Origin: an uncultured Actinomycetes bacterium
Lineage (GTDB): Bacteria > Actinomycetota > UBA4738 > HRBIN12
Direction: 5' to 3'
DNA: 64,000 nt
Assembly: GCA_963744515.1 (NCBI GenBank)
Contig: CAVUTN010000009.1
Span: forward strand, 5,637 to 69,636
Below are positions 45,189-64,000 of the stretch, piece after piece. The first letter of the stretch is position 1, and every line of letters starts with the position of its first letter. The notes beneath the pieces were generated by a model. It was not told where the DNA came from. It did not search any database and saw only the letters and a program-made list of their open reading frames with translations. Position numbers and translations under genes: made by a program.

Positions 45189-45317
45189 GGCCGAGGTCCT
45201 TTCGGAGGGTCCGAGGGTTTGATGCGCGGGAGAAGCCTCGCCGGTCCACGCACGGCGGGACCCCGGCGAGGCCCGCTCTTCAGGGACGAATCTACCCGGG
45301 TTGGGCGGGTTCCGGCA

Positions 45318-46116: not shown

Positions 46117-46167
46117 GCGTCCGAGCGCGGAAGGGTTCGTGCATCCCGCCTCGACCCTACCGAAGGA

Positions 46168-46761
46168 TCACCCGCCGAGATCGGACGGCGTGTCGACGTC
46201 GAACAGGGTTCGGCGCTCCGGGATCGAGCGCCACCCAGGTCGGCCTCGTCGATCGACGGCGAGCCGGAGCGCGTCGAGCAGGTCGCGGAGCGCCCGCCGG
46301 CCGTCGTGCAGCAGCGCGTGCGCGACCTCGACCGCCCTCGCGGTCCGAACGACGCTCGGCAGCGGCCGGAACCCATCGCCGTCCTGCAGCGCCACGGCCT
46401 CGACGTCGGCCTCCCCCGCCACCTGCAGCATCTCGAGCAGGACCCGGGTCTGCAGGTCCGGCATGTCGCCGCCGGTGACCAGGGCGAACTCGGTCCCGAC
46501 GGCGAGCAGCCCCGCGTGGACCCCGGCGAGCGGACCCTCGCCCTCGGTCGGGTCGCGCGCGAACCGTGCCGGGGCGCCGATCGGCATCGGCGGTTCGGGC
46601 GCGTCGGGAGCCAGGACGACGATCACCTCCGAACACACCTCGCCGAGCCGGAGGACGGCGTGCTGCAGCATCGGCATCCCGCGGTAGGGCTCGGAGAGCT
46701 TGTCGCGGCCGAACCGCGTCGAGCGCCCGCCCGCCAGGACGACGCCCGTGACCTCAGGCAG
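46168..46761 (-). CDS. mobA: Molybdenum cofactor guanylyltransferase
   Basis: GVVLAGGRSTRFGRDK, GPLAG, DMP, DVDTP. Confidence 0.88.
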   Translation of the reverse strand: MPEVTGVVLAGGRSTRFGRDKLSEPYRGMPMLQHAVLRLGEVCSEVIVVLAPDAPEPPMPIGAPARFARDPTEGEGPLAGVHAGLLAVGTEFALVTGGDMPDLQTRVLLEMLQVAGEADVEAVALQDGDGFRPLPSVVRTARAVEVAHALLHDGRRALRDLLDALRLAVDRRGRPGWRSIPERRTLFDVDTPSDLGG

Positions 46762-47743
46762 GCCGGTCCCCCGTCGACGGCTGCCCGGCGGTGTCGGCGT
46801 CCTGCGCCGGCGCGCGGTTCTGCACGAACTGGAACCCGAACCGCCCCTTGATGCACAGGTGGCCGCTCGTCACCTGGTTGTCCGAGGGCGAGGTGACCTT
46901 CACGATCGAGTTGTCCTGCACGTGGACCTCGAGATCGCAGCCGACGCCGCAGTACGGGCAGATCGTCTCGGTCACCGTCTGCTGCGACTCGTCCCAGGTG
47001 CCGGCCTCGCGCATCTCGTGCTCGCTGGTGAACATCAGGGCGCCGGTCGGGCACACGCCGATGCAGTTGCCGCAGTAGACGCACGCCGAATCCGGCAGCC
47101 CGACGTCGAACTCGGTCGAGATCCGCGCGTCGAACCCCCGGCCGGCCACCGAGATCGCGAACGTGTTCTGCGCGTCGACCCCGCAGGCCTCGACGCACTT
47201 GTAGCAGAGGATGCACTTGGAGTAGTCGCGGACGTAGAGCTCGTTGTCCACCTTGACCGGCTGGTGGACGGTCTCGGCCGCCGCGCCGTCCGGCTCGTGG
47301 TGATGACCGGCGTGGCGGGCGTCGCGCTCGCCCGCTGCCGCGGGCTCGGCCGGTGCGCCGTACCGCGCCGGATCGGCGCCGTAGTCGGCCTGCCAGCGCT
47401 CGACGTCGGCACCGGTGAGCCCGACGTCGACGCTCGAGCCGAGGAACTCGAGCACCATCTTGCGCGAGAGCCGGACGCGTTCGGAGTCGGTCTTGACCTT
47501 CATCCCGGCCTCGGCCTTGCGCGCGCACGAGGGCACGAGCACGCGCGAGCCCTCGAGCTCGACCACGCACACCCGGCAGGCGTTGACCGGCGTCAGGTTG
47601 TCGGCGTAACAGAGCGTCGGCGTGTCGACTCCTTCGCCGCGGAGCGCGTCCAGGATCGTCGAGCCCTCGGGGACGCGGACCGGCTTGCCGTCGACCTCGA
47701 GCTCGATCAGGCGGTTGGGCGGCGCGAGCGGGACGACCGTCAT
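46754..47743 (-). CDS. Formate dehydrogenase Fe-S subunit ([2Fe-2S] + 2x[4Fe-4S] + the CxxCxxGC..C cluster normally on the alpha subunit)
   Basis: PTLC...CRVCVV...C, CILCYKCVEAC, CVYCGNCIGVCP, TICPYCGVGC...HLCIKGRFG. Confidence 0.88.
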   Translation of the reverse strand: MTVVPLAPPNRLIELEVDGKPVRVPEGSTILDALRGEGVDTPTLCYADNLTPVNACRVCVVELEGSRVLVPSCARKAEAGMKVKTDSERVRLSRKMVLEFLGSSVDVGLTGADVERWQADYGADPARYGAPAEPAAAGERDARHAGHHHEPDGAAAETVHQPVKVDNELYVRDYSKCILCYKCVEACGVDAQNTFAISVAGRGFDARISTEFDVGLPDSACVYCGNCIGVCPTGALMFTSEHEMREAGTWDESQQTVTETICPYCGVGCDLEVHVQDNSIVKVTSPSDNQVTSGHLCIKGRFGFQFVQNRAPAQDADTAGQPSTGDRPA

Positions 47744-49583
47744 GCGGCACCCCCGTCGAAGATCTTGAGGCGATGGATCGCCGAGTCGACCGCGTTCGCG
47801 GCCAGCTGCCCGAGACCGCAGATCGACGCGTCCCGCATCACCTGACCGATCTCGCCGATCAGCGCGAGCTCGTCGGCGAGCGAGCCGTTCGCGCGACCCT
47901 TGATGACCCGCGCGAGCGCCTCCTCCTGCCGGACGGTTCCCACCCGGCACGGGACGCACTGCCCGCACGACTCGTCGCGGAAGAACGCCGCGATCCGCAG
48001 GACGATGTCGGTCAGGTCCACGTCCTCGTCGAACACCATCACGACCCCCGACCCGAGCGTGACCCCCGCGGCCTTCGAGTCCTCGAACGTGAGCCGCAGG
48101 TCCAGGTCGTCCGACGTCACGAACGATCCCGCCGCGCCGCCGAGCAGGATCGCCTTCAGCGCCTTGCCGCCCCGGACGCCGCCGGCCATCTCGAGCAGCT
48201 CGCGGAGCGTGATGCCGTGCTCCACCTCGTACACGCCGGGGCGTTCGACGCATCCGGAGAGACAGAACAGCCGGGGTCCCGTCGAGTCGGGCGTGCCGAT
48301 CTCCGCGTACGCCTCGCCGCCGAGCGTGAGCACCTCGAGCACGTTCACGAGCGTCTCGACGTTGTTGATCCCGGTGGGCTTGCCGAAGACGCCACGCTCG
48401 ACGGGGAACGGCGGCTTGTTGCGGGGCTCGCCGCGCTTGCCCTCGATCGAGTTGAACAGCGAGGTCTCCTCGCCGCAGATGTAGGCGCCGGCGCCACGCC
48501 GGAGCTCGACGTCGAAGGCGAACCCCTCCCCCATCACGTCGGCCCCGAGGAACCCGTGCGCGTACGCCATCTCGATCGCGTGTTCGAGCCTCGAGGTCGC
48601 GAGCGGGTACTCGCCGCGGATGTAGATGAAGCCCTTCTCGGAACCCGTCGCGTACCCGGCGATCGTGAGCGACTCGAGGACGGCGAACGGGTCGTGCTCC
48701 ATCAGGACCCGGTCCTTGAACGTGCCGGGCTCGGATTCGTCGGCGTTGCAGATGAAGTAGTGCGGTTGGACCGGCTGCTTCGCGACCGCCTCCCACTTCA
48801 CGCCCGCGGGGAACGCGGCGCCGCCCCGCCCCTGGAGCTTCGAGTCCTTGAGCTCGGCGATCACGCCCTCGGGACCGAGCTCGACCGCCCGCCGGAGCGC
48901 CTCGTAGCCACCGTGCGCCCGGTAGTCATCGAGCGACGCCGGGTCGACGACGCCGACCCGGCGGAGCAACCGGAGCTCCTCGCGCGTGCCGTCGGTCTGC
49001 GGCGCGACGTCCACGACCTCCGCGCCGCTCATCATCGTCCAGGGACCGCCGTGCAGGAACGGGTCGAGCCGTTCGATCGAGACCGGGCCGAACGCCACGT
49101 CCCTCGAGCCGGAGCCCTGCAGGAGCGCCGCCGGCGCGCGCTCGCACATCCCGAGGCAGGGGCTCCGAAGGACCTGCTCCGAACCGACCTGCCGGATCAC
49201 CTCGTCGATCAGGCCCTCCGCACCCGCGACCTTGCACGCGATGTCGTCGCACAGGTGCAGGACCGTCGTCGGTCGCGGTTCGACCGAGAACATCGCGTAG
49301 AACGTCGCGACGCCGTAGGCCTCGGCGGGCGGGACCGTGAGGCGCTCGCACGCGTAGCGGAGACCACCGGGACTGATCCAGCCCGCGCTCGACTGCAGCG
49401 CATGCAGGACGGGCAGCAGCAGGTGGCGCTGCTCCCGCGCCTCGTGCCCGCCCCGAGCCACACGCCCGTCCGCCTCGGTCCGCTCACCCACCCGACCATC
49501 CCGAGGTCGCCGCGCCGAGGACCGCGTCGACGGCGGCGCGTTCGTCGTCGCTGGCGAGGTCGTCGGAGCAGGACGAGGTCCAC
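47740..49583 (-). CDS. Fused NuoE/NuoF-like NAD(H)-binding flavoprotein subunit (FdsG/FdsB-like)
   Basis: GVATFY, CDDIAC, CLGMC, GRGGAAFP, CNADESEPG, GAGAYICGEET, ESCGQCVPCRVG. Confidence 0.9.
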
Positions 49584-49590
49584 GGCGGCG

Positions 49591-51509
49591 CTACGCCCCC
49601 ACCGACTCGGAGATCTTCTCGATCCGGACCGCGGTCGCCTTGAACTCGGCGGTCCCGGACTTCGGGTCGGTGGCGTCGATCGTGAGGATGTTCGTGTCGA
49701 CCTGGTCGGGGAAGTGCAGCGTCATGAACACGAGACCCGGACGGAGGCCCCGGTCGACCCGCGCCGGGACCTCGAGCGAACCCCTCCGTGAGGTCACGAG
49801 GACGACCTCACCCTCCGCCACGCCGAGCCGATCGGCGTCCTCGGGGGAGAGGTCGATCGTCTCGCCGCGTCGCAGCGGCGACGTGTACCCGCCGGTCTGG
49901 ACACCGGTGTTGTACGAGTCGAGCCGGCGGCCGGTCGTCAGGCGGAGCGGGAACTCCTCGGTCAGCTCGTCCACCGGGGGCTCGAACGGCGTCACGCTGA
50001 ACGGCGCCTTGGGGCCGCGCTTGTCCCGCTCCTCCTCCCACAGCCGGGCGTGCAGGAACAACGTCCCCTCGTGCTCCTCGTCGTAGCACGGCCACTGGAT
50101 CCCCTCGAGCGCCTCGAGGCGTTCGTAGGTCATCCCGGCGTGCATCGGCGAGACCGCCCGGAGCTCGTCCCAGGCCGAGCGCGGCGTGACCTCGCCCCAG
50201 TCCCGCCCGAGCCGCTTCGCGAGCTGCGCGATGATCCAGATGTCGTCCTTCGCCTCGCCCGGCGGTTCGAGCACCTTGCGGACGCGCTGGACCCGCCGCT
50301 CGCTGTTGGTGACCGTGCCCTCGGACTCGAACGCCGAGTTGGACGCCGGGCAGGACGACGTCGGCCATCTTCGCGGTCTTCGTCATGAACAGGTCCTGGA
50401 CGATGAGCGTGTCGAGGTTCCCCATGAGCTTGCGCGCGCGGCCGACGTCGGCCTCCGAGGAGGCCGGGTTCTCGCCGATCACGTAGAGCGCGGTCAGCAC
50501 CCCGTGCTCCATCCCGTCGAACATCTGCGTCAGGTTCCGGCCGTACTTGCGGATCGACCGGGACGCCGCACACCTGCTCGTACCGCGCGCAGGCCTCGGG
50601 GTCGTTCTCGATGTCCTGGAACCCCGGCAGCTTGTTCGGGATCGCGCCCATGTCGCCGCCGCCCTGCACGTTGTTCTGACCGCGGAGCGGGTTCAGGCCG
50701 CTCCCGTACCGCCCCACGTGCCCGCAGAGCAGCCCGAGGTTGATCAGGGCCAGCACGTTGTCGGTCGCGTTGTGGTGTTCGGTGATGCCGAGGGTCCAGC
50801 AGATCTCGGCCCGGTCGGCCTTCGCGTAGGTGTGCGCGAACTCGCGGATCACCTCGGCGGGGATCCCGGTCGCCTGCTCGCCGCGCTCCAGGGTCCACTC
50901 CATCACCGAGTCCCGGTAGGCGCGGAACCGCATCGTCGCTCGCTTGACGAACGTCTCGTTCACGAGGTCCGAGACGATGATCTCGCGCGCCATCGTGTTC
51001 GACAGCGCGATGTCCGAACCCACGTCGATCCCGAGCCACAGGTCGGCCCACTGGGCCGAGGTCGTCCGACGCGGGTCGACGACGACGAGCCGGGCGCCCT
51101 TGCGGATCCCCTTGAGCACGTGATGGAAGAAGATCGGATGCGTCTCGCGCGCATTCGACCCCCACAGCACGATGAGATCGGTGTTCTCGATCTCCTCGTA
51201 CGAACTGGTTCCCCCACCTGCTCCGAACACCGTCGCCAGACCGACGACCGAAGGAGCGTGTCAGGTGCGGTTGCAGCTGTCGATGTTGTTGCTGCGAAGG
51301 ACCGTCCGCATGAACTTCTGCGCGACGAAGTTCATCTCGTTGGTGGCCTTCGAGCAGCTGAACAGGCCGACCCCTTCACCGGCGTTCCGCTCGGTGGCCG
51401 CCCGCAGACCCGCCGCTGCCCGATCGAGGGCCTCGTCCCAGGTCGCCGTTCGCAGGCCGCCGTTGTCGCGGACCATCGGCTCGGTGAGCCGCGTGAGCCC
51501 GTTCTTCAT
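49591..51509 (-). CDS. fdhF: Selenocysteine-containing Mo/W-bisPGD formate dehydrogenase catalytic subunit
   Basis: ATWDEAL, NNIDSCNRT-(TGA 51263-51261)-HAPSVVGL in frame, WGSNARETHP, LRGQNNVQGGGDMG, LTTGRRL, TAEFKATAV. Confidence 0.88.
51232..51263 (-). promoter_or_regulatory. UGA Sec codon plus bacterial SECIS hairpin
   Basis: TGA CAC GCT CCT TCG, then GTCGTC-GGTCT-GGCGAC, a hairpin 12 nt after the UGA. Spacing and loop match the E. coli fdhF SECIS. Confidence 0.8.
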
Positions 51510-51574
51510 CGAGGCGTGCTCCTTTCGCTCGGCTCCGAGACCGATTGTATGCCCCGGTTCGGGGGTCGGCCCCC

Positions 51575-52416
51575 TCAGGCGGGGACGCGCTCGGCGTGGC
51601 TGTAGACGTTCGCGCGCCCGTCGCGGACGAACCCGACCAGCGTCATCCCGAACCGCTCGGCGGCCTCGACCGCGAGCGAGGAGGGTGCGCTCACCGCGCT
51701 GACGATCGGGATGCCGGCCACCGCCGCCTTCTGGACGATCTCGAACGACGCCCGCCCGCTCACCTGCAGGATCGTCCCGTCCGCCGGGAGGCGGCCGGCC
51801 AGGTAGCGCTCGCCCACCACCTTGTCGACCGCGTTGTGGCGCCCGACGTCCTCACGGACCGCGAGCGGCGTGCCCGCCGGGTCGAACAGTCCCGCCGCGT
51901 GGAGCCCGCCGGTCCGCTCGAACACCGCCTGCGCCTCTCGGAGCCGGTCGGGCAGGGAGACCAGCGAGCGCCGAGATCGACCTCGGGCCCGGGAGCGACG
52001 GGCTCGCACCGGACCTCGATGTCCTCGAGCGCGGCCTTGCCGCAGACCCCGCAGGAGGAGTTCGCGTAGAAGTTCCGCCGGAGCCGCTCGGCGTCGAACG
52101 GCCGCTCGAGCGTGACCGAGACCACGTTGTAGCGCTGGTCCTCGCCGGGCAGGTTGTCGCAGTAGGCGACGCGCTTCACGTCGCCGGGTGCGATCAGGCC
52201 CTCGGTGAACAGGAACCCGACGGCGAGCTCGAAGTCGCCCCCGGGCGTTCGCATCGTCACCGCCACCTGCGCCTGTTCCTGGCCGGGGCCCTGCACGCGG
52301 ATCTCGAGCGGCTCCTCGGTGGCCAGGCTGTCGGTGCGCTCGGACCGGACACCGTCGTTCACGGCCACGACCCGGGCGCGGGTGGAGCTGTGCCGGATCG
52401 GTTCGGTGACGGTCAC
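51575..52416 (-). CDS. fdhD: Formate dehydrogenase sulfurtransferase FdhD (frameshift ~51970)
   Basis: [46 protein letters not shown]. Confidence 0.93.
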
Positions 52417-52470
52417 CGCTCCAGTATCCGACCGGAGACCGCGTCGGTCCATGTCTCCAGGGAGCGGGCC

Positions 52471-53684
52471 TCAGTGGGAGACGGCCGCGGCGGCGATCTC
52501 GGAGACGAGCTCGCGCTTCCAGAACCGGTCGAGCGCGAACGGCGCGATCAGCTCGGGCACCGTGCCCGTGTGGACCAGATCGGCCATGGTCACGCCGACG
52601 ATCGGCGTGGCCTTGAACCCGTAGGTCCCCCACCCGCCGTCGATCAGGAACCCCTCGACCTCGGTCTTCCCCATGATCGGCGAGTAGTCGGGCGAGACGT
52701 CGCACAGACCGCCCCACGCCCGCATCACCTTGACCCGCGACAGGAACGGGAGGAGCTCCAGCGTGTGCTCCGCGGTGACCTCGAGGAAGTTCAGCGTCGA
52801 GTCCTGCGAGTACGACGAGTACGGCTCGATCTCCGAGCCGACCAGCACCTCGCCGCGGTCGGTCTGCGAGACGTAGACGTGCAACGTCGCCGAGACCAAG
52901 ATCGCGTGCAGGAACGGCTTGAGCGGCTCGGTCACGAACGCCTGCAGCGGATGGGTCGTGATCGGGACGCGGATCCCGGCCATCCGCGCGATCTCCGAGG
53001 TCCACCCGGCGACCGCCGAGACGACCACGGGTGCCGACACCTCCCCCGCGGACGTCGACACGCCGGTGACCCTGCCGCCGTCGACGTTCACGCCCGTGAC
53101 CTCGACGCCCTGATGGATCTCGACGCCCATCCGGTCCGCCTGCCGCGCGTACGCCCACACCACGGCGTCGTGGCGGATCACCCCGCCCGGCGGGTGGTAC
53201 AGCGCCGCCATGATCGGGAACGCCGGACGGTCCGAGAGGTCGAGCTGCGGACAGAGCGTGCGGATCTCGTCCGGGTAGATCACGCGCGAGTCGACGCCGA
53301 GCAGCCGGTTCACCTCGGCGCGCTCGTGCGCGACGTTCACCGCTCGCTCGGCGTGGGCGAGCGTCAGGTGCCCTGCTGCGAGAACAGGAGGTTGTAGTCG
53401 AGCTCCTGCGCGAGGTGCTCGTACAGCTTCAGCGCCTCCTTGTAGAAGGCGACACCCTCGGGCGTTCGGTAGTTGGCGCGGATGATCGTGGTGTTGCGGC
53501 CCGAGCCACCGGCGCCGATGTAGCTCTTCTCCAGGATCGCGACCTTCGTGATGCCCCGCTTCGCGAGCTCGTAGGCGATCGCGAGACCGTGGGCGCCGCC
53601 GCCGACGATCACGACGTCGTAGGTCGGCTTTAGGTCGTGGCGGCGCCACATCGTCCACGGCTGGAAGTACCGGATCGGATGCAT
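52471..53684 (-). CDS. soxB: Heterotetrameric sarcosine oxidase-like beta subunit (FAD; frameshift ~53370)
   Basis: [53 protein letters not shown]-terminus. Confidence 0.85.
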
Positions 53685-53686
53685 CG

Positions 53687-54321
53687 CTACGACCACCCCT
53701 CCGCGCGGAGCGCGCGCCAGCCGACCGGACGCCCCGCCCGTCCGCCGCACGGCGTCGAGCACCGTCTCCCAGGCGTAGCGCGCGAACTCGGCCGCGACGT
53801 AGGCCTCGAGCACCGGGACCTCGAGGTCGCGCCGGGCCACCACCGCTCGGACGTCGGCGATCGGCGCGCCCGGTCGCCTCGCCGGCCGCGAGCGAGGCGG
53901 GGTCCCACGACGTGAGCCGGGCGAGCACCTCGTTCAGCGCAGGTCCCGGCGAGCGCGAACCCGACGAACAGATGCGTCACGTCGGTCACCATCGCGCCGT
54001 CGCCGGCCGCCGAGCCGAGCTTCGGGACCAGGACCTCCTCGCCACCGGGTTCGGCCAGCAGGAGCGCCCAGTCGTCGGCGATCCGAGCGGTGAGGACGTC
54101 GCCCGCCGCGGACAGGGCGCCGTCGAGCGAACCACGGACGTCGATCTTGCCGCGCGCCGTCACGTCGGCGAGCCGCGACGCCGCTCCCGCAGGCGCGCGC
54201 GTTCGGTCGGCCTCGTCGCCGTAGTGCGCGACGAGCTCCCAGCCCGCCTCGCGGTCCGACGACGGCGCCGAGGTCCGCGTGCGATCCGCGCGAGCGGCGA
54301 GCGGCGGATCGGCTCGTTCAC
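53687..54321 (-). CDS. soxG: Sarcosine oxidase-like gamma subunit (frameshifted)
   Basis: RRSPL, ADVTARGKIDVRG, VTDVTH, YAWETVLDA; located within the operon. Confidence 0.7.
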
Positions 54322-57114
54322 GACCGGAGCCTCGCGCCCTCGGGGTCGTAGAACGGCCGCATCGCGACGGTCGCGTTCGCGCGGTGCCGGCCGAACTGGA
54401 TCTCGAACGGCGTCCCGTCGCTCGCCCAGCCCGCGGGCACCCAGGCGAGGCCGACGATGCTCCCGGCCGCGGCGCTCGCGCGGGCCGAGGTGACGCGGCC
54501 GACCCAGATGCCGTCGTGGACCACGCTCGCGCCCTCGGGCGGCACCCACGGTCCCCGAACACGTGAAGCCGACGAGCCGCTCGCCCGGCGCCTCGGCGTC
54601 GAGGCCCTCGAGCCCCCGCTTGCCGAGGAAGTCGTCCTTGTCCGCCTTGACCGTCCAGCCGAGACCCGCCTCGAACGGGTCGGACTCGGCGTCGGTGTCC
54701 TGCCCGACGAGGATGTGCTGCTTCTCCAGGCGGAGGATCCGCTGCGCCTCCAGCCCGAACGGCCGGATCCCGTGCGGCTCGCCGGCGGCCATCACCTCGT
54801 CCCAGACGTGCTCGCCGACCATCGAGGGCACGTGGATCTCGTACCCGAGCTCGCCGACGAACCCGATCCGCAGCACGAGCGCCGGCACGCCGGCGACGTC
54901 CATCGTGCGTCGCCGACAGGTAGGGCACCGCCTCGCCCGAGACGTCGGCGTCGGTGAGCGAACGCATCACGTCGCGCGACGCCGGGCCCGCGAGGTTCAC
55001 CGCCGCGTACGCGCCCGTGAGGTTCAGGACGCGGACGTCGAGGCCCCAGTCGGCGTTCCACCACGTGATCCACCGTTCGAGCGCCGCCGTGTTCCCCGTG
55101 GTGACGGTGACGAAGAACTCGTCGTCGCCGAGCCGGGCGACGGTCCCGTCGTCCACGATCACGCCCTCGTCGTTCAGCATCACGCCGTAGCGGATCCGGC
55201 CGATCGGCGAGGTCGGCGAACCGGCTCGGGTAGAGGCGCTCGAGCAGGGTCACGGCCTCCGGTCCCTTGACGCGGAACTTGCCGAGCGTGCTCACGTCGA
55301 TCACGCCGACGCGCGTCCGAACGGCCTCGACCTCGTCCTCCGGCGACGTGTAGTGGTGGGGCCGGCGCCAGTCGCCCGCCCACATGAACGTGGCGCCGGC
55401 GTCGACGTGCCGGTCGTGGATCGTCGTCTCCTTGCGCGGGTTCCGGCGCCACCCCGCGAGCGTCCCGAGCTCCACCGGGGTCCACGGCGGGCGGGCGGTC
55501 GTCGGGCGCGTCTGCGAGAAGGACGAGCCGGTCGCCCGCGAGCACAAGCGCTGCGAGGCCATCATGCAGGCCTTGCCCTGGCACGGACCCATCGTGATCG
55601 TCGTGTACCGCTTGAGGAGCTCCATCGAGTCGAACCCCTCGGTGACGGCGGTCTTCAGCTCCTTGTTCGTCACGTCCATGCACAGGCAGGCGAACTGCTT
55701 GCCGTGGCCGGCGCCGACCTCCGGCGGCAGGACGACGGGGTCCCCTTCGGCCGCGGCGTCGGCGCGGAGGCGCTCGATCCGTTCGTCGGCGTCGGGCGGA
55801 GCGAGCCCCAGCGCCATCCCCGCCTCGAGCCCCGCGAGCCGGCCCTGCGCGATCGCGCCTTCGAGCGAGCGAGCGCCGGCGACCGCGCCCGCGGCGTGGA
55901 CGTTCGGCGGGCAGGTGCGTGGGCAGGAACGCCTGCGCCGCCTCGTCGAACGCGAGCTCGGCGCCGGTCATCGCGAGCAGGTTCGTCGAGGGGACCTGGA
56001 ACCCCGCGAGGACGACGAGGTCGCAGGGGATCGTTCGGCCTCCCTCCTCGCCCGGGACCCCGACCACGACCTCGCGGACGCGGCGGCGCCCCTCCGCGGC
56101 CACGATCGTGGAGCCCGCGATGACCGCGAGCCCGTCGATCGGGCGCGCGTCGGGCCGCAGGTCGACGACCGTCACGTCGGCGCCCGCGGCGCGGAGCGTA
56201 CGAGCGGTCTCGTAGCCCCTTCGCGCTCGAGGTGAGGACCACGGCGCGCCGCCCCGGGAGCACGCGGTAGCGGTCCACCAACAGGTCCGACGGCGGACGA
56301 GAGCATCACGCCGGGCAGGTCGTTGTTCGGGAACACCGCGGCCTGCTCGACCGCGCCGGTCGCGAACACCAGGTGCCGCGCCCGGATCCGGTAGAGGCGA
56401 TCGCCGTTCGCGGCCGCGATCAGCGGCCCCCCGAACACCCCGAACGCCGGCGTCCCCTCGATGATCCTCGCGCCGGCGGCCTCGGCCTCCGCCGCCAGCT
56501 CGGCGCGCATCGACCCCGACCTCGGCGCGTTCCTCGAGCACCAACGTCGAGGCACCCGCACTCGCGGCCTCGGCCGCCGCCGCGAGACCGGCCGGGCCGG
56601 CGCCGATCACCAGGACGTCGGCGTGGAGGTTGTGGACCTCGCGCGGCTCGTGGTCCGCGTCCTTCGGCGCCTTGCCGAGCCCGGCCTTCGAGCGGATGAA
56701 CGGTTCGACCGTCTTCCACGCCCACCGCGGCCGGTGGAAGATCTTGTAGTAGAAGCCCGGCGGCATCATGAACGAGAACGTGTTGAGCCATCCGTGGATG
56801 TCGTGGTCCACGCTCGGCCACGCGTTCTGGCGTTCGACGCGCATCCCGTCGCGGACGGGCTCGGTGCACGAGCGGACGTTCGGGATCCCGTCGACCTGCA
56901 TCAGGCAGTTCGGACATGCCCCCGTCATGCAGAACAGGCCGCGCGCCCGGTGGTACTTGAACGAGCGACCGGTGATCGAGACGCCCGCGGCCGCCAGCGC
57001 CGAACCGATCGTGTCGCCCTCGAACGCGTCGACCGTGCGACCGTCGAACTCGAACGAGACCGGCCGGTCGCGCCGGATGGCCTCGCCGGGACGCGGGGGG
57101 AGCCGTTCGGTCAC
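54318..57114 (-). CDS. soxA: Sarcosine oxidase-like alpha subunit (2Fe-2S/NAD-binding plus GcvT domain; frameshifted)
   Basis: GDTIGSAL, RSFKYHRARG, KRYTTITMGPCQG, TTARPP, DVSTLGK, RIGFVGELGYEI, PFYDPEG. Confidence 0.88.
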
Positions 57115-57419
57115 GCGGTCGAGGCCCCGTCGAGGGACTCGTCGCCGCCGGACGGCTCGCCGTCTCCCTCACCCGGCCAGAACGTCCGCCGGACCTCGTT
57201 CGTCCCCGTGTGCCGTTCGGCGAGGAACCACCTCCGGCACCCGTCGCGATGCAGCCACCATTCGGTCTGCCAGCCGTTGACGTTCTCGCGGAAGAAGAGG
57301 TAGCCCGCCAGGTCGCGATCGGATGCGTCCGGGCCGGCCCGGCGGGTGCGTTCGCCGCCGTAGGAGAACTCGAGCGCCTCCCGCGGGCCGCAGTTCGGAC
57401 AGTCGATGAGGAAGGTCAC
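57111..57419 (-). CDS. soxD: Sarcosine oxidase-like delta subunit (Zn-binding)
   Basis: IDCPNCGPR..EFSYGGE, EWWLHRDGCRRWF..RHT.TNE. Confidence 0.88.
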   Translation of the reverse strand: MTFLIDCPNCGPREALEFSYGGERTRRAGPDASDRDLAGYLFFRENVNGWQTEWWLHRDGCRRWFLAERHTGTNEVRRTFWPGEGDGEPSGGDESLDGASTA

Positions 57420-57908
57420 GGTCGGCCGGCCGCGTCGTTCGGAACCCAGACGAGGCAGGTGACCCGGTCCCGAACGGCCCCGAGCGCCTTGCGGTAGCGC
57501 CGCTCGCGGAGGGCCGTTGCGATCCGGGCCGAACACGAACAGCCCCGGACGCACGTCGGCGACCAGCTCCAACAGCGCCTGCACCGGTCGCGGGCTCCGG
57601 ACCCTCAGCCGCTCCACGTGGACGCCGAGCGACCGCGCGAGCTCGGCCGAACGACGCAGCGACGCCGAGACCTCCGGCGTGAGCTCGGGGAGGGAGTCGT
57701 AGCCGAGGGTGATCGACATGCGGAGCGGTTCGAGCGCCGTCACGTTGGCCACGACGAGCCGCTGCCCGGACTCGACGGCGGTGTCGACCGCGAACACCGA
57801 CGCCTCCTCGTTCAGCGGGACACCCAGCGTCGCGAGCAGGACCGGGCGGCCGGCGGCGCCACGTCCCGTCGAGACGTCCGTCCCACGATCCCTGAGGTCG
57901 ACGCCCAT
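57416..57908 (-). CDS. Universal-stress-protein-like hypothetical protein
   Basis: PVLLATLG...AVDTAVESG..LVVANV...PGLFVFG; alpha/beta USP-like pattern. Confidence 0.6.
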
Positions 57909-57912
57909 CGGC

Positions 57913-58270
57913 TCACTCCGGGTGCAGCTGCCAGTGCGGGAGGTTCCGGGCCCGGCGCCGGACCTTCTGGCGCCACCGCGGCATGTAGACCAGGAACCAG
58001 AAGGCCATCAGCGCGAGGATGATCGGCAGGACGCGCTGGACGTTCATGTTGGCCAGGACGATCGCCGCCCCGACGCCGAACGCCAGCGAGCACCCCGACG
58101 ACCTGGAGGCGGTAGCGCCGCATCTCCCGCATGATCCCCCAGTACTCCTCGGCCGGGATCTGCTCGGTGTTCCACCGGCGCCCGCAGTCGGGGCACACCC
58201 ACCTCTGCCCGTACGGGACGCGCTCCACCTGGCCACAGTCGCAGCGGATCGTGATGGGGGCGCCACGCAT
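57913..58270 (-). CDS. Hypothetical Zn-ribbon membrane protein
   Basis: CDCG...WVCPDCGRRW followed by two TM segments. TACAAT -10 lies just upstream (leaderless). Confidence 0.65.
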
Positions 58271-58379
58271 CGGGCCGGATTGTATCCCCCGGGCACATCG
58301 GACCGTTTTGAACGCCCGAACCCAAAGTGCTATACCCCTCGCTGGCGTTCGACCGGATGCCTTTGGGAGGGGGATCGTC

Positions 58380-59894
58380 GTGGCTGAGGCCGTCATCGAG
58401 GAACGTCAGCTCCTCAAGACCCTGCACTGGTACGACGGGTTCGTCATCGCGCTGTGCCAGCCGGCCTTCCTCCTCGGGACGCTCGGCTTCACGCTCGCGA
58501 CGATCGGCGTCTGGGGATCGGTCCTGCTGTGGGGCATCTCGGCGACCGTCGGGCTGCTCCAGAACTTCATCTACTCCGAGACGGCCGCGATGTTCCCCGA
58601 CAAGCCCGGCGGGATCGCGCTCTACGCGCACGAGGGCTGGCGGTCGCGGTTCAGCCTGTTCGGGCCGATCGCCGCGTTCGGCTACTGGATCGGCTGGTCG
58701 GTCGTCCTCTCGTTCGTCGGCAACATCGTGGGCGCGCTGATCGTGGCGGAGTGGTTCCCCGAGTCGGGGGACGGCACGGGCGACGCGTACTTCAACCTGG
58801 GGTTCGCCGACTTCGGGCTCGCGCAGGTGATCGCGATCGTGGTGATCCTGGCGGTCTGGTCGTTCAACGTGCTCGGCGTCAAACCGTCGCTCGCCGTCGG
58901 CTACGTGACGGGCGCGCTGCTGATGGTGCCGCTGTTCATCTTCATCGTGATGCCGTACATCACCGGCGACTGGTCCAGCTCGAACCTGGAGTACGTCCAC
59001 AACGTCGGCGACCCGTCCCTCGGCTTCAGCGACCTCTCGATCGCGCTGATGTGGCTGTTCATCATGTGCTGGTCCGCGTACGGGATCGAGGTCTGCGCGA
59101 GCTTCGCCCCCGAATACCACGACACGAAGCGGGACACGGCCAAGGCGCTGAAGAGCGCCGCGGCGTTCTCGCTGTTCGTGTACATCTTCCTGCCCCTCGG
59201 CCTGGGTGGCGTGGTCGGTTCGACCGGCGACTACGGCAGCTTCTACGTGGCGGCGCTCAAGGAGATCGCCGGGGATGTGGTCGGCGGCTTCGCGGTCGTC
59301 TGTCTGATCGCGAGCCTGATCCTGGCGATGAACACGGCCACGGCGGACGGCGGCCGGGCGTTGTACGGGATCGCCCGCGACGACATGACGATCAAGTGGT
59401 TCCACCACCTGAACCGCTTCCACGTGCCCGCGCGCGGCATGACGGTCGACATGGTGGTGAACATCGGCCTGCTGCTCCTCCTCGGCGCGAACAACTTCGT
59501 GATCCTGTACATCTCGAACATCGGGTACGTGTTCTGCCACGTGCTGGCGCTCTCGGGGTTCCTGCTGCTCCGGCGAGACCGGCCCGGGTGGCCGCGCCCG
59601 ATCAAGGTGGGGAACGCGTGGCTGCCGATCGCCGGCGGTCCTTGCGCTGTTCAACCTGGTGCTGGTCGTCTACGGCATCTGGGATCAGGACTCTCGCCGC
59701 GTACCTCGGCTTCTACGAGTTCACCGGGCTGCCGCTCTACCTGGGGCTCGGCGTCCTGGTCGTGCGGTGCTCCTGTTCTTCTACCGGCGGGTCGTCCAGG
59801 ACAAGGCCAAGATCACGTTCCGCGACCGCGACGTGCCGACGATGCCGAACGAGGAGCAGATGGCGCTCCTGCGCGAGGAGTCGATCCGGCCTAG
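58380..59894 (+). CDS. APC family amino acid/amine permease (frameshifts near 3' end)
   Basis: Many TM helices, YSETAAMFPDKPGG, WSAYGIE, RALYGIARD, RPIK. Confidence 0.88.
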   Translation: MAEAVIEERQLLKTLHWYDGFVIALCQPAFLLGTLGFTLATIGVWGSVLLWGISATVGLLQNFIYSETAAMFPDKPGGIALYAHEGWRSRFSLFGPIAAFGYWIGWSVVLSFVGNIVGALIVAEWFPESGDGTGDAYFNLGFADFGLAQVIAIVVILAVWSFNVLGVKPSLAVGYVTGALLMVPLFIFIVMPYITGDWSSSNLEYVHNVGDPSLGFSDLSIALMWLFIMCWSAYGIEVCASFAPEYHDTKRDTAKALKSAAAFSLFVYIFLPLGLGGVVGSTGDYGSFYVAALKEIAGDVVGGFAVVCLIASLILAMNTATADGGRALYGIARDDMTIKWFHHLNRFHVPARGMTVDMVVNIGLLLLLGANNFVILYISNIGYVFCHVLALSGFLLLRRDRPGWPRPIKVGNAWLPIAGGPCAVQPGAGRLRHLGSGLSPRTSASTSSPGCRSTWGSASWSCGAPVLLPAGRPGQGQDHVPRPRRADDAERGADGAPARGVDPA

Positions 59895-59917
59895 CAGCTC
59901 CGACGAGCTCGTACCCG

Positions 59918-59946
59918 GACGGGGGCGGCCTTCGGCCGCCCCCGTC
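59918..59946 (+). terminator. Strong GC hairpin with a C(UUCG)G loop after the permease gene (no U-tract)
   Basis: GACGGGGGCGGCC-TTC-GGCCGCCCCCGTC, a perfect inverted repeat. Confidence 0.6.
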
Positions 59947-60039
59947 GCGTGTCCGGGGCGCCTCGCGTTGCCCGGCCCGAGCCTTCGAAACTAGGATGTG
60001 ACCTCGCTCGCGGACACCCACGCCACCAGGAGGACACCG

Positions 60040-61444
60040 ATGTCGGAGAAGATGTGGGGTTCGGAGCCCTTCTGGGGCCTGGGGTACGACTGGGATCCGG
60101 ACTGGGTCTACACCGATCGGCAGAAGGAACTCCGCGCCACCCTGATCGAGCTCTGCGAGAAGGAGCTGCGCGCCAACGCCAAGCGGTTCGACGACGAGCT
60201 GATGTTCCCGCGTCGGAACCTCGAGCTGCTCGGCGAGCACGGGTTCCTCGGCCTCACGGTGCCCGAGGAGTACGGCGGCCTCGGCGAGGACCACGTCGCC
60301 TACTCGATGGTGTGCGAGACGATCGCCCGGTACGGCTGCGCCTCGACCGCGATGTGCTACGTGATGCACATCGGCGCCGTGAACGCGATCATGCTGCGCC
60401 AGACGCCCGAGCTCGTCGACAAGTACATCCGCCCGCTCAACTCGGGCAAGATCGGCACGCTCTCGTACTCGGACCCCGAGACCGGGCTCGCACTTCTGGT
60501 ACCCGGTCTCCTCGGGCGCCGAGCGCTCCAACGGTGGCTACAAGGTCCGGAAGAAGGCGTCGTGGACGACCTCGGCCGGGTTCGCCGACTTCTACGTCGT
60601 CCAGACCACGAGCCCGGACTTCTCCGGCTACGACGACCTGTCCGTGTTCGTGGTCGACGGGGACCAGGTGCAGTCCCAGCCTTCGCTGTGGGACGCCCTC
60701 GGGCTGCGCGGGAACCAGTCCGGACCGCTCGAGGTCCCCAACGTCGAGATCCCCGCCACCCAGCTCGTCGGGCCCGAGGGCGACGGCGCGAACTCGAACG
60801 ACGAGTCCGTCGACCCCTGGTTCCTGATCGGCTCCTCGTCCGTGTGGAACGGGCTCGCGCTCGGGGCGATCGACATCGCCAAGCGCCACACGACCCGGAA
60901 GAAGCACGTCGACGTGGGCCTGCGGGTCGCCGACTACCCGACGATCCAGGACTACGTGGGCGAGGCGCTCATGGACACGAACGCCTCCCGCCTGTTCGTG
61001 CTCTCGGTCGCCCAGGCGATGGACCGCGAGACCGACGACAACACGAAGAACCCCGAGCCGGGGTCCCTGGCCCGGGGCAACTACCTGCACTGGGCGTGGC
61101 AGATCAAGTTCGAGGCCGCCAAGAACGTGGCGCACGTCGTGGACAAGATGCTGCACGCGTGCGGCGGCTCCGGCTACAAGCGCGACATGGAGCTCGAACG
61201 CTACCTGCGCGACGCGAAGGCCGGCTGGGTGATGGGCCCGACCAACGAGGTGCTCCGCCAGTTCGTCGGCAAGGCCGTGCTCCTGGGGTTCGAGTCGCTC
61301 GACTACTGGAACCAGTCGTACAACCGCCGGGCGGTCGAGAACGAGGTGAAGAAGCTCGACGCGGCCGGCAAGCGCGAGCTCGCCGAGCAGCTGCTGTCGG
61401 AGGCCTCGGAGCAGGAGCCCAAGGAACCGGCGAAGAAGGCCTAG
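60040..61444 (+). CDS. Acyl-CoA dehydrogenase-fold flavoprotein (frameshift ~60485)
   Basis: GLTVPEEYGGLG, SYSDPETG, LGLRGNQSG, GGSGY...LERYLRDA; WVMGPTNE in place of the usual IYEGT motif. Confidence 0.85.
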
Positions 61445-61447
61445 CGC

Positions 61448-63785
61448 ATGGCGGTCGGCAGCGGCCCGTCGAAGCTCCTGGTCGGAGGGTTCCGCGCGGC
61501 CGACCCGTCGTTCGAGCAGTACTGGGTGCGCCCGGGCGGCGCGACGGTCCTGGCGATCGCGCCCGAGGACCGGTTCACCGTGATCGACGTCGACGGCGGC
61601 CAGGTCGGCCGAGCTCACGATGCTCGCCCCCGACGGCACGGACGCGGCCGAGGCGATCGGCGCGCGGGCCGACGCGCCCGCGACGGTCGTGCGGGCGCTC
61701 GTCTCCTCGATGGTCGACGGCGCGCAGGAGGTCGTGCAGGATCTCGCCGGCCGCGGGCTGGACCCGAGCCGGGCGATGGCGGTCCGGCTGTTCGACGAGT
61801 GGTCGCCGCCGGGCTCCGAACAGTCGTTCCGCGCCGATCGCGAGGGCGTGCTCATCGTGGCCGCCCCGGCCGGCCGGCTCGTCGACGGCGCTCCCCCGCC
61901 GAGCGACCTCGTCGTCGAGGTCCACCGCGCGCGGCCGCGGACGGCGCAGGAGGTCGAGCTCCCCGCCCCGCTCGCCGAACCCCGCCTGGACTTCCGGATC
62001 GACCGGTCCACCGCCCGCAGCTACGAGGTGCAGGCCGGCGAGTTCATCCAGGTGATCGACGTCGAGGGCAAGCAGTGCTCGGACTTCCTGGCGTTCCACC
62101 GGCGCAAGCTCGACGACGGGGTCGAACGCGGGCTCGACGCGACCGTGACGCGGACGCTGATGGGCAACGCGTACCCGACGCCGGGACTGTCCGGGAAGTT
62201 CTACGACGCCGACATGGATCCGCTCGTCGAGGTCGTCCGGGACACGGTGGGCCGGCACGACACGTTCGCGCTCGCCTGCAACGCGAAGTACTACGAGGAC
62301 ATGGGGTACCCCGGTCACGTCAACTGCACGGACAACTTCAACGGGACCCTCACCGTGTACGAGATCGCCAAGCGCAAGGGCTGGCCGGCGCTCAACTTCT
62401 TCTTCAACACCGCGTTCAACGCCGACAACGTCCTGGTCTCGGACGAACCCTGGTCCCGCCCCGGCGACTACGTGCTCCTGCGCGCGATGACCGACCTCGT
62501 GTGCGCCTCGTCGGCCTGCCCGGACGACGTCGACCCCGCGAACGCCTGGAACCCCACCGACGTCCACGTGCGCGTCTACGCGCCCGAGCATCGGTTCAGC
62601 GTCGCGATCGCCCACCGCGTCACGCCCGAGGCCCGACCGGTCCTCACGCAGAAGACCGGGTTCCACCCGAGGGTCGAGGCGCTCACGAAGAACCTCGTCG
62701 AGTACAACGGGTACTGGCTGCCGTCCCACTTCTCGAACGAGGGCGCGATCGCCGAGTACTGGGCGTGCCGCGAGCACGCGGCGATCATGGACCTGTCGCC
62801 CCTGCGCAAGTTCGAGATCCTCGGGCCCGACGCCGAGGCGCTGCTGCAGGCGACGATCACGCGCGACGCGCGGCGGCTCTCGGTCGGCCAGGTCACGTAC
62901 ACGGCCGTGTGCAACGAGGCCGGCGGGATGATCGACGACGCCACGGTGTTCCGACTGGGGCAGGACAACTTCCGGTTCGTCGGCGGCGACGACTACGACG
63001 GCGTCTGGCTGAAGGAGCAGGCGGAGCGGCGCGGGCTGCACGCCTGGGTCAAGCCCTCGACCGACCAGCTGCACAACGTCGCCGTCCAGGGGCCGGCGAG
63101 CCGCGAGATCCTGCACGAGGTCGTCTGGGCCCCGCCCGCCCAGGGCTCGCTCGACGACCTCGGGTGGTTCCGCTTCCTCGTGGGCCGGGTGGGCGCGCCC
63201 GACGGGATCCCGATCGTGGTCTCGCGCACCGGCTACACGGGCGAGCTCGGCTACGAGGTCTGGTGCCATCCCGGCGACGCCGAGGCCGTCTGGGACGCGA
63301 TCTGGGAGGCCGGCGAGCCGCGCGGGCTCGCGCCGTTCGGCCTGGACGCGCTCGACATGGTCCGGATCGAGGCGGGGCTGATCGTGGCCGGCAACGAGTA
63401 CGACCAGCAGGTCGACCCGTTCGAGGCCGGGATCGGGTTCGCGGTCGACCTGCGGGGCGACGAGGACTTCGTCGGCCGCGCCGCGCTCGAGGAGCGCAAG
63501 GCCCACCCGCAGCGGACGCTCGTCGGGCTCGAGGTCGAGGGCAACGAGGCCGCCGGGCACGGCGACCCCGTGTTCGTCGGGCGCCAGGAGATCGGCGTCG
63601 TGACCTCGGGGACGCGTTCGCCGGTGCTGAAGCGGACGATCGCGCTCGCGCGCGTCGCGGTCGGGTTCGCCGAGCTCGGGACGAACGTCGAGGTCGGCAA
63701 GCTCGACGGGCTCCAGAAGCGGATCCCCGCCACCGTCGTCCGGTTCCCGTTCTACGACCCGGACAAGACCCGCCCGAGGTCCTAG
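61448..63785 (+). CDS. tdm: DUF1989-GcvT protein; probable trimethylamine N-oxide demethylase (frameshift ~61610)
   Basis: GKQCSDF, RHDTFALACNAKYYEDMGYPGHVNC, EPWSRPG, SSACPDD, plus a C-terminal GcvT fold (DLSPLRKF, RTGYTGELGYE, PFYDP). Confidence 0.78.
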
Positions 63786-63787
63786 CC

Positions 63788-64000
63788 GTGGCGACCGACG
63801 TCGCCGCCGAGCCGCTCGAACGCTTCACCGACGAACAGGTCGCGTCGTTCTGGCGCGACGGGTTCCTGATCGTCGAGGAGGGCCTCATCGCCCCCCGCGC
63901 GCTCGAACGCCTCCGCGAGCGCTACCTGCCGCTGTTCGAGGGCGAGTACGAGACCGGGATCCGGCCCGACGAGGTGAACTGGGTCAAGGGCCGAGATCCC
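63788..64000 (+). CDS. Phytanoyl-CoA dioxygenase (PhyH) family protein, partial
   Basis: FTDEQVASFWRDGFLIVE.., an N-terminus typical of PhyH-family Fe/2OG dioxygenases. Truncated by the window end. Confidence 0.65.
   Translation, partial: MATDVAAEPLERFTDEQVASFWRDGFLIVEEGLIAPRALERLRERYLPLFEGEYETGIRPDEVNWVKGRDP

Follow-up and report, generated by a model that had tools for sequence, protein, structure and literature searches.

Much organic nitrogen is turned over by way of methylated amines, which are also climate-relevant volatiles. The known aerobic pathway for their breakdown, made up of Tmm, Tdm, Dmm and the N-methylglutamate route, was worked out in Proteobacteria. Described gene clusters for trimethylamine (TMA) and trimethylamine N-oxide (TMAO) include those of Paracoccus aminophilus (pAMI6), Methylocella silvestris, Ruegeria pomeroyi and Rhizobium leguminosarum (pR132502). 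We analyzed a 64,000-nucleotide stretch of DNA (the window; G000:C9:5637-69636) from the assembly G000, which comprises 2.30 Mb in 19 contigs with 71% G+C and is rated 58% complete. The right-hand part of the window holds a gene cluster that very probably encodes methylated-amine catabolism with a TMAO demethylase (Tdm), the N-methylglutamate route and a formate dehydrogenase (FDH). The new part of the cluster is a gene for a flavoprotein with the acyl-CoA dehydrogenase (ACAD) fold, together with its linkage to tdm. With moderate confidence, we read the whole as a conserved cluster of an uncultured soil Thermoleophilia/Gaiellales-like actinobacterium that would join the known pathway to a replacement for Tmm and Dmm. 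The known part of the pathway is well supported by its sequences; the replacement of Tmm and Dmm is one that we infer. Such a cluster would give a very common, uncultured soil group a role in soil TMAO and methylamine turnover.

In the proposed pathway, TMAO, and probably TMA, would be imported, the methyl groups moved to tetrahydrofolate (THF) and the one-carbon (C1) units burnt to CO2. Tdm would convert TMAO to dimethylamine (DMA) and methylene-THF. A ligase resembling glutamine synthetase (GS), a candidate GmaS, would act with MgsABC, encoded like it past the end of the window, to turn methylamine into N-methylglutamate. A SoxDAGB-like heterotetramer would then oxidize N-methylglutamate as the equivalent of MgdABCD. 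FolD (encoded elsewhere) and a formate-THF ligase (beside the cluster in the relative G022) could lead the C1 units to formate. The formate would be oxidized by a selenocysteine (Sec)-type NAD-linked FDH, in which the catalytic subunit works with a NuoEF fusion and with a NuoG-like Fe-S subunit that is encoded separately; FdhD and MobA are its probable maturation factors. The ACAD-fold protein and a flavin reductase with a cyclic-nucleotide (cNMP)-binding domain may form a two-component flavin-dependent amine oxygenase. Together with a PhyH dioxygenase, and possibly a DAO-family oxidase, this oxygenase would supply TMA to TMAO and/or DMA to monomethylamine (MMA). There are thus three candidates for the missing oxidations: the ACAD-like protein with its reductase, PhyH, and DAO. 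A preliminary description of this DNA, made from the sequence alone, had proposed an integrated system of uptake, demethylation and C1 oxidation. That proposal has held up, with Tdm over its family cut-off and keeping all ten functional residues, and with a complete FDH module for which selenocysteine is plausible.

The predicted Tdm scored 1155.9 bits against NF053776, the NCBIfam equivalog for TMAO demethylase (cut-off 1100), and 1159.8 bits in a second scan. It matched the sequence of the Paracoccus TDM cryo-EM structure (9q59) with an E-value of 5e-261 over chain residues 77-787, and it is 56-62% identical to Rhizobium Tdm. The description of the Paracoccus structure gives C285, C301 and C365 as zinc ligands, D220, F327 and D367 as substrate residues and R480, F582, F672 and K782 as folate (THF) residues (PMC13619132). 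All ten of these residues were identical in the window protein, as counted by hand in a phmmer alignment to 9q59. The preliminary description had called the gene Tdm-like; with a score over the equivalog cut-off and 10/10 functional residues kept, we take it to encode a genuine TMAO demethylase.

We found that the ACAD-like gene tracks tdm closely. Tdm was over the cut-off in 8 of 41 related genomes (two of the 41, G029 and G037, are unpublished), all 8 belonging to the genus, and PhyH orthologues were found in exactly these 8. Orthologues of the ACAD-like protein (at least 90% identity) were found in 9 of the 41, namely the 8 Tdm-positive genomes and G021, which is 69% complete. G029 gave weak, non-orthologous matches only, and G037 gave only a GcvT-type match and distant ACAD paralogues. 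We then have a wider sample of 294 genomes of the class, scored at E-values of 1e-150 or better for Tdm and 1e-60 or better for the ACAD-like protein. Tdm was present in 49 of these genomes and the ACAD-like protein in 54; 46 had both, 3 had Tdm only, 8 had the ACAD-like protein only and 237 had neither. In all three Tdm-only genomes, tdm lies at a contig end. Of the 46 genomes with both, 44 have the two genes as neighbors in the same orientation. The sample includes the unpublished genomes G174, G247, G166, G195 and G069; of these, G174 and G247 count toward the 49 with Tdm, G166 and G247 toward the 54 with the ACAD-like protein, and G247 toward the 46 with both.

The linkage extends to a large number of species. 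Taking one genome per species, there were at least 587 pattern matches, and at least 568 of these encode a relative of the ACAD-like protein. We counted neighbors in the best 80 of these at least 568 loci, in which the ACAD-like protein is 85-100% identical. The 80 loci come from metagenome-assembled genomes labeled Actinomycetota, Actinomycetes, Thermoleophilia, Gaiellaceae or simply bacterium, and titles that were informative pointed to soil or groundwater. These labels also serve to place the source organism of the window. In every locus with at least 2.5 kb of downstream sequence (68/68), tdm starts 6-876 nucleotides after the ACAD-like gene on the same strand. Among the 62 loci with at least 6 kb downstream, a flavin reductase gene was present in 60, PhyH in 56, DAO in 42, mgsC in 41 and a gene for a 143-amino-acid protein in 39. 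Upstream, where 66 loci have 6 kb or more of sequence, the permease gene was present in 47 and soxA in 27. The permease and mgs genes swap sides between lineages, and the ACAD-tdm tandem is unchanged. The genomes are kin, and the adjacency counts are therefore higher than the number of events that are truly independent. PhyH is missing from 6 of the 62 well-flanked loci and DAO from 20; neither is an obligatory partner.

Conservation of the cluster proteins is uneven. We compared G022 with G288 (L142, L138), which belongs to another family of the order. RpoB is 81% identical between the two, the ACAD-like protein 88%, MgsC 94% and MgsB 85%. Identity is 68-75% for Tdm, 64% for PhyH, 67% for the permease and 56% for the flavin reductase. 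This pattern argues for unusually strong constraint on the ACAD-like protein. The preliminary description had called the region an island; if this meant a recently transferred element, the uneven differences between the two families speak otherwise, and we rejected a recent transfer of the whole cluster on these grounds.

The cluster appears to lack the proteobacterial enzymes for the steps before and after Tdm. Using Tmm and DmmABCD queries taken from the annotated Rhizobium plasmid (Rhizobium leguminosarum pR132502), we found no match to Tmm, DmmC or DmmA in G000 or in the loci compared, and a single weak match to DmmB (E 1e-7). The DmmC protein was found in 0 of 41 related genomes, and the DmmC family PF11927 in 0 of 4 genomes, with the Rhizobium record as a positive control (231 bits). 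Tmm was found in 0 of 24 genomes of the genus; 7 of the 41 genomes, all outside the genus, gave weak partial matches only. These absences rest on relatives that are 83-97% complete, as the 58% complete G000 alone says little. They agree with the preliminary description, which had listed tmm and dmm as absent from the window. A missing Dmm need not imply a replacement: SAR11 is described as carrying Tdm without Dmm (PMC5520151), and by this precedent the cell may simply release DMA. The same source describes abundant lineages with Tdm but no Dmm as a metabolic bottleneck (PMC5520151).

Because Tmm and DmmC were not found and both genes track tdm tightly, the ACAD-like and PhyH proteins are good candidates for the missing steps. 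The predicted structure of the ACAD-like protein is a confident ACAD fold (pLDDT 90.5) with a 50-residue C-terminal helical extension. Across 42 aligned members there is no Glu at either of the canonical catalytic-base positions, which we take from medium-chain (MCAD) and isovaleryl-CoA dehydrogenase (IVD): the IVD-type position holds W, L, V, F or Y and the MCAD-type position A, G, V or S. After Tdm, the flavin reductase is the most constant neighbor (60/62 loci), and its best NCBIfam matches are the reductase components StyB and HpaC. No CoA ligase, CoA transferase or electron transfer flavoprotein (ETF) was seen among the cluster genes in the Pfam and NCBIfam annotation. In PhyH, an HxD (HQD)...H...R pattern is invariant in 49 of 49 aligned orthologues, and by motif reading this corresponds to the iron triad and the 2-oxoglutarate (2OG) arginine. 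Flavin hydroperoxides are good at N- or S-oxygenation, and Fe(II)/2OG enzymes typically remove N-methyl groups by hydroxylating a C-H bond. By this chemistry, the ACAD-like protein with its reductase would suit TMA to TMAO or N-oxygenation of DMA, and PhyH or DAO would suit DMA to MMA. Where PhyH is missing (6 loci), DMA would be a dead end of the pathway, unless it is also handled by the ACAD-like protein or DAO.

Several comparisons count against an oxygenase. Among solved structures, both the sequence and the predicted fold of the ACAD-like protein come closest to ordinary acyl-CoA dehydrogenases (E ~1e-33, 22-27% identity, TM ~0.9). Its best NCBIfam match is the Rv1679/FadE16 acyl-CoA dehydrogenase family (228 bits, cut-off 600). 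Known ACAD-fold monooxygenases match it less well (DnmZ, E 1.5e-11; SfnB, HsaA and DszC, 68, 54 and 44 bits, respectively). The fold search returned the generic ACAD fold only and did not separate dehydrogenase from oxygenase. Since the top matches are true ACADs, we do not file the protein in any characterized monooxygenase family, and propose only that it works like one. On balance, we lean slightly toward the notion that the ACAD-like protein and its reductase are an oxygenase acting in the methylated-amine pathway. That it is specifically a TMA N-oxygenase is a tentative suggestion, and that it is specifically a DMA-converting enzyme is somewhat more doubtful. The preliminary description had suggested that the ACAD-like and PhyH enzymes replace the proteobacterial ones. 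Both do follow tdm closely and are strengthened as candidates; the replacement itself is put forward here as a prediction from sequence.

The ACAD-like family extends beyond the genomes with tdm. In a bacterial branch that is 45-50% identical and has no tdm, the ACAD-like gene is followed immediately by a Flavin_Reduct gene in 5 loci. The operon there consists of an AraC regulator, the ACAD-like gene, Flavin_Reduct and Cupin_7 (L117:8965-12447; L121:9015-12446). Its neighbors encode a polyamine-type ABC transporter, a class-III aminotransferase, an aldehyde dehydrogenase and a DAO-FAO_M-GcvT protein. Since this branch shows no linkage to tdm, specificity for Tdm does not hold across the whole family, a point against our reading. 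Other homologues, at 35-47% identity, are fused to FAD_binding_6 and NAD_binding_1 domains resembling cytochrome b5 reductase (P0126, P0144, P0151). Along with the absent glutamates and the recurring reductase gene, in this branch as well as beside tdm, the fusions favor an oxygenase supplied with electrons by a reductase. These fusion proteins come from animals, e.g., Homarus americanus (XP_042236428.1) and Notodromas monacha. About 60 proteins of about 770 amino acids that share the fusion architecture were matched by the lobster protein. The hosts are decapods, a stomatopod, an isopod, amphipods (including Hirondellea gigas), krill and barnacles, as well as Owenia (an annelid), Lingula (a brachiopod), several corals and a chiton. 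Several of the animal genes lie on chromosome-scale scaffolds. Unfused bacterial relatives were also among the matches, at 53-56% identity. A metagenome scan with the lobster fusion protein gave 66 pattern matches, none of which was confirmed.

TMAO is known to be present in many of these animals, which live in the sea; we take this as no more than a lead. The animal fusion proteins offer another, independent way to approach what the family does. A bolder and rather improbable notion is that the ACAD-like protein, together with the flavin reductase, represents a novel type of methylamine N-oxygenase that forms an "oxygenate, then demethylate" pair with Tdm. TMA would then be converted to TMAO and on to DMA, and possibly DMA would again be N-oxygenated and yield methylamine. 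If this were true, both Tmm and Dmm would be unnecessary in several hundred soil Gaiellales species, and the animal fusion proteins could be unrecognized enzymes that produce TMAO or oxygenate related small methylated amines or sulfides. Our literature searches of titles and abstracts found no ACAD-fold enzyme linked to Tdm and no methylamine use by Gaiellales, which does not prove that no such description exists.

In relatives, the genes of the N-methylglutamate route lie just past the stretch that the window covers. The preliminary description had listed gmaS and mgs as absent from the window. In four relatives (G022, G002, G015 and G004), mgsC, mgsB, mgsA and a GS-like gene are present near tdm, a few kb past PhyH. 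The contig of G000 ends inside mgsC, and all of the last 33 codons encode residues identical to those of G022 (33/33). The genes are missing from the window because the window and the contig end cut them off, in a genome that is 58% complete. Past the genes shared with the G000 contig, G022 has Glu_synthase (mgsC), GXGXG (mgsB), amidotransferase (mgsA) and GS-like genes, followed by genes for a USP and a formate-THF ligase. For the genes near tdm in G002, G015 and G004, identity to the Rhizobium proteins is 52-53% for MgsC, 37-38% for MgsB, 34% for MgsA and 31% for GmaS. The GS-like gene adjoins mgsA, and its 31% identity is to Rhizobium GlnT/GmaS. MgsC was present at high identity in 46 of the 49 Tdm-positive genomes of the class sample; the 62 MgsC matches in that sample include the unpublished G174, G247, G166, G195 and G069. 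The gene for the 143-amino-acid protein (L016:5198-5626; L001:13188-13625) lies directly after mgsC and is always next to it; no Pfam or NCBIfam family was matched by this protein.

All four subunits of a Sox/Mgd-type complex are encoded in the window, as identified with Pfam and NCBIfam. Since mgs and GS-like genes are nearby, the SoxDAGB-like heterotetramer is most simply read, and most likely to be identified from its sequence context, as an N-methylglutamate dehydrogenase equivalent to MgdABCD. Some observations fit less well with this route. The GS-like protein scores 328.7 bits against TIGR03105, under the cut-off of 469.6, and sequence does not separate an Mgd-type complex from sarcosine oxidase. 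G000 also has two further sox-like (alpha/beta) clusters (C2:273078-277249 and C8:8350-12711), and PurU was over its cut-off in 0 of 5 genomes. GcvT-domain matches number 16 in G000 and 10-19 in relatives; with the further sox-like clusters, they point to a broad N-methyl and C1 metabolism. The preliminary description had proposed a search for folD and purU. FolD was over its cut-off in 5 of 5 genomes, so that only the first of the two was found. With PurU not found and a formate-THF ligase gene (FTHFS) beside the cluster in G022 (L016:11098-12792), the ligase run in reverse may give formate.

The FDH module is complete. The catalytic subunit aligns with both FdhF-type and FdsA-type FDHs (E 1e-105 to 1e-130). 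It begins at about FdhF residue 61, just past the Fe4S4 domain, and the Molybdop_Fe4S4 domain is instead the C-terminus of a NuoG-like Fe-S protein that is encoded after nuoEF. This placement indicates that the FDH alpha subunit is split, with its halves encoded in permuted order. The split falls at the boundary between the Fe4S4 and molybdopterin domains, and the arrangement in G022 is identical. The gene that the preliminary description called an Fe-S subunit is present and encodes the N-terminal portion of the FDH alpha subunit, separated from the rest. The NuoEF fusion is separate from the catalytic subunit gene in 4 of 4 genomes read; a fusion of the catalytic subunit to NuoEF, considered on account of an open frame in G022, was rejected, as a stop follows ...VGA in all four. 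An in-frame TGA lies within CNRTUHAPSVVGL, at the Cys/Sec-His position of FdhF-type FDHs. A tRNA-Sec was found, and selA was over its cut-off in 5 of 5 genomes. These findings make a selenocysteine reading plausible, although the hairpin after the UGA was no better than that of shuffled sequence (z -0.45).

Our results might also indicate that the ACAD-like and PhyH proteins are bystanders or act on another substrate, and that only Tdm and the N-methylglutamate route are used, with DMA released as in SAR11. In that case, the ACAD-like protein may genuinely dehydrogenate an acyl-CoA or acyl-carrier substrate, and PhyH may hydroxylate some quaternary or N-methyl compound that has nothing to do with this pathway. 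This would explain why the nearest relatives of the ACAD-like protein, in sequence and in fold, are real ACADs, and it would fit both the 45-50% identical branch found in other amine-related contexts without tdm and the absence of PhyH from 6 of 62 loci. It also has the precedent of Tdm without Dmm in SAR11 (PMC5520151). Bystanders would not be expected to keep the ACAD-tdm tandem in 68 of 68 loci despite rearranged surroundings, nor to show near-perfect co-occurrence with Tdm across 294 genomes. An acyl-CoA dehydrogenase is also hard to reconcile with the loss of both canonical glutamates, with the presence of a reductase partner or reductase fusion and with our finding neither a CoA ligase or CoA transferase nor an ETF gene in the cluster. 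Moreover, the ACAD-like protein is conserved above RpoB between families (88% vs 81%). We consider the bystander explanation unlikely, and an oxygenase acting in the methylated-amine pathway remains our preferred reading of the ACAD-like protein and its reductase. A separate question is whether the leftward genes form a sarcosine, dimethylglycine or glycine-betaine branch, with SoxDAGB a true sarcosine oxidase beside Tdm. The best family matches are to sarcosine oxidase subunit families, all below the subfamily cut-offs, but because the Mgd subunits are homologous to the Sox subunits such matches cannot decide. The many GcvT-domain paralogues (16 matches in G000), and the low share of loci (27 of 66) that have soxA in the 10 kb upstream, would also suit such a branch. 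The cluster, however, holds mgsABC and a gmaS-like gene and no betaine or dimethylglycine enzyme, and the two other sox-like clusters of G000 could serve sarcosine. In the literature, mgdABCD are named beside mgsABC-gmaS (PMC4543880). A sarcosine branch is therefore, in our judgment, improbable, and we retain N-methylglutamate dehydrogenase as the most likely identity of the heterotetramer.

The cluster genes in G000 are interrupted by frame breaks, and these could reflect real pseudogenization, that is, decay of the cluster in the source organism. Because the high G+C content makes plain lists of open reading frames useless, we mapped coding frames by third-position G+C (GC3) and named the pieces with Pfam and NCBIfam. 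Approximately 18-20 single-base frame changes interrupt the cluster genes; almost all genes of the region are affected, among them those for SoxA (at least 7 frame pieces), FdhD, SoxB, the FDH catalytic subunit, the ACAD-like protein and Tdm. We compared these with G022, which is collinear with window positions 46159-64000 at 89.9% nucleotide identity and whose intact genes served as gene models. The frames of G022 are open where those of the window break, and the breaks are single-base indels relative to this intact, 90%-identical relative, although G022 also carries a few such frame errors. Amino-acid identity to G022 is 80-98% across the broken genes, a level at odds with decay. Breaks are also found throughout the assembly. 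A GC3-based heuristic, which records where the coding signal stops without a stop codon and resumes in another frame, gave 863 candidates in 2.30 Mb (~3.7 per 10 kb), spread over all 19 contigs, and the completeness of 58% for an assembly of 2.3 Mb in 19 contigs likewise points to its quality. The stretch from 50.3 to 58.1 kb does have 9 candidates in 7.7 kb, and as only 49 of 2160 8-kb windows reach 9 or more, it falls in the top 2.3%, as decay might predict. The extra base of the window at 53731, 53868, 53944, 54549, 55206 and 60484 is missing from contigs of public short-read data, which carry one added base at 53370 (12 best-supported rows of 63, from four runs in three studies, labeled soil or rhizosphere where a label was given). 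At some sites the indel is lacking in part of the contig depth only (e.g., 155/426 at 60484 in run X1), which would be compatible with decay. Taken together, it is highly likely that the frame breaks are assembly errors and not gene decay, for which we see very little likelihood. Given the 863 candidates and the 58% completeness, gene calls from the G000 record are to be expected to be badly fragmented.

The features of the cluster are listed in Table 1. All genes named in the preliminary description were identified again with Pfam and NCBIfam, in the order and orientation given there.

Table 1. Predicted genes of the cluster, in window coordinates
Feature	Position	Strand	Basis and remarks
mobA-like molybdenum cofactor guanylyltransferase	46171-46755	-	PF12804 E 6e-32; last gene of the leftward operon
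Fe-S protein, NuoG-like 2Fe-2S + 4Fe-4S	46757-47743	-	Fer2_4, Fer4, Molybdop_Fe4S4 (residues 256-309 of 329)
NuoE-NuoF fusion, putative NAD(H)-binding diaphorase part of FDH	47743-49491	-	2Fe-2S_thioredx, Complex1_51K, SLBB, NADH_4Fe-4S
FDH catalytic subunit	49594-51524	-	Molybdopterin, Molydop_binding; TGA in frame at 51261-51263; two single-base indels give three frames
fdhD, predicted sulfur transfer to the FDH cofactor	51578-52470	-	PF02634 profile 1-92 + 112-236 in two frames; one break
SoxB/MgdA-like FAD subunit	52474-53696	-	DAO, TIGR01373 soxB subfamily; one break; G022 copy of 408 aa intact
SoxG/MgdD-like subunit	53730-54324	-	tblastn with 207-aa G022 protein; broken; partial GCV_T in G022 protein
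SoxA/MgdC-like subunit	54321-57060	-	Fer2_4, FAD, SO_alpha_A3, GCV_T, GCV_T_C pieces
SoxD/MgdB-like subunit	57129-57419	-	PF04267 E 3e-25; separate 98-aa gene in G022
USP-like protein	57434-57851	-	weak Usp match, 19.9 / 22 bits (cut-off 24); tblastn
Small Zn-ribbon membrane protein	57916-58273	-	CxC...CxxC, hydrophobic C-terminal half; translation of G022 copy; first gene of the leftward set
APC permease	58365-59886	+	AA_permease_2
ACAD-fold flavoprotein	60025-61441	+	ACAD domains; 471 aa in G022; break at ~60484
Tdm, DUF1989 + GcvT + GcvT_C	61448-63785	+	PF09347, PF01571, PF08669; one break at ~61606
PhyH Fe(II)/2-oxoglutarate dioxygenase	63767-64000, cut by window end	+	PF05721 E 6e-23; continues to L001:7306, 301 aa in full

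Upstream of ~46 kb are housekeeping genes (for a penicillin-binding protein, the DNA polymerase III alpha subunit, a PASTA kinase, phosphofructokinase and others), and we therefore place the left edge of the cluster at mobA. The best NCBIfam matches of this gene are MobA models, all under their cut-offs. The SoxA copy of G022 is intact (909 amino acids) and scores 765.9 bits against TIGR01372, below the cut-off of 1164. The gene for the USP-like protein is joined in frame to soxD by a frame error of the G000 assembly. No Pfam family was matched by the Zn-ribbon protein. The permease is a candidate importer of TMAO or methylamine: its best NCBIfam match is a TMAO permease (188 bits, under the cut-off of 690), and it is 25% identical to the permease encoded divergently to tdm in Rhizobium. 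On the right, the contig extends 7 kb past the window, and the cluster runs on to the contig end. Past PhyH, all on the minus strand, are genes for the flavin reductase-cNMP-binding fusion, the DAO-family oxidase, a glyoxalase-like protein, a Peptidase_C26 hydrolase and a 146-amino-acid protein. The cyclic-nucleotide-binding domain is at the C-terminus of the flavin reductase (L001:9719-10687, equal to C9 72718-73686; L016:1716-2684).

We noted several other features at or near the cluster. Left of mobA are a CobW/UreG-like GTPase gene (43913-45176; a weak match, from the G022 copy) and a gene with the metallo-beta-lactamase fold (45295-46167), and both adjoin the cluster in G022 too. A Zn-ribbon adenylate cyclase gene (L015:2275-3014, frame-broken) adjoins mobA in G022; G000 has several paralogues of it, none of them at the mobA position. 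An Rfam scan of the whole window gave no match at gathering score. In two rhizosphere metatranscriptome runs (X6 and X16), contigs of 93-99% identity span the region, with all 30 bins covered; carry-over of DNA is possible, and we did not count them as expression.

The proposed oxygenase can be compared with the two-component ACAD-fold flavin monooxygenases, a class that includes DszC/DszD, nitrososynthases (e.g., DnmZ) and isobutylamine N-hydroxylase. Amine N-oxygenation is an established reaction of this class. Common features are the ACAD fold, the absence of the catalytic Glu and a separate HpaC/StyB-type flavin reductase gene close by. In contrast to those enzymes, to which it is only weakly similar, the ACAD-like protein is nearer to true ACADs and has the 50-residue C-terminal helical extension, and its presumed reductase carries a cNMP-binding domain. 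The FDH is most like the FdsGBA type (Rhodobacter capsulatus, 6tg9; Methylobacterium, 7vw6 and 7e5z). Its catalytic domain matches these at E 1e-107 to 1e-115, and both have NuoE-, NuoF- and NuoG-like modules, FdhD and MobA. It differs in its split alpha subunit with the Fe-S half encoded after nuoEF, in the fusion of NuoE to NuoF and in the TGA codon at the active-site position.

The whole cluster is most similar to the proteobacterial TMA and TMAO clusters named at the outset. It has in common with them a Tdm orthologue, an APC permease gene beside tdm (seen in Rhizobium), mgsABC with a GS-like ligase, a Sox/Mgd-type heterotetramer and nearby genes for C1 oxidation. Unlike those clusters, it has no Tmm, DmmC or DmmA homologue that we could find, and FTHFS lies beside it (in G022) where PurU was not found. 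The subunit genes of the heterotetramer are in the order D-A-G-B, and the operon for the Sec-type FDH is fused to the sox/mgd operon. Finally, the cluster links to tdm a set of genes that are additional to those of the proteobacterial clusters: the ACAD-like gene, PhyH, the flavin reductase-cNMP fusion, DAO, Peptidase_C26, the glyoxalase-like gene and the gene for the 143-amino-acid protein.

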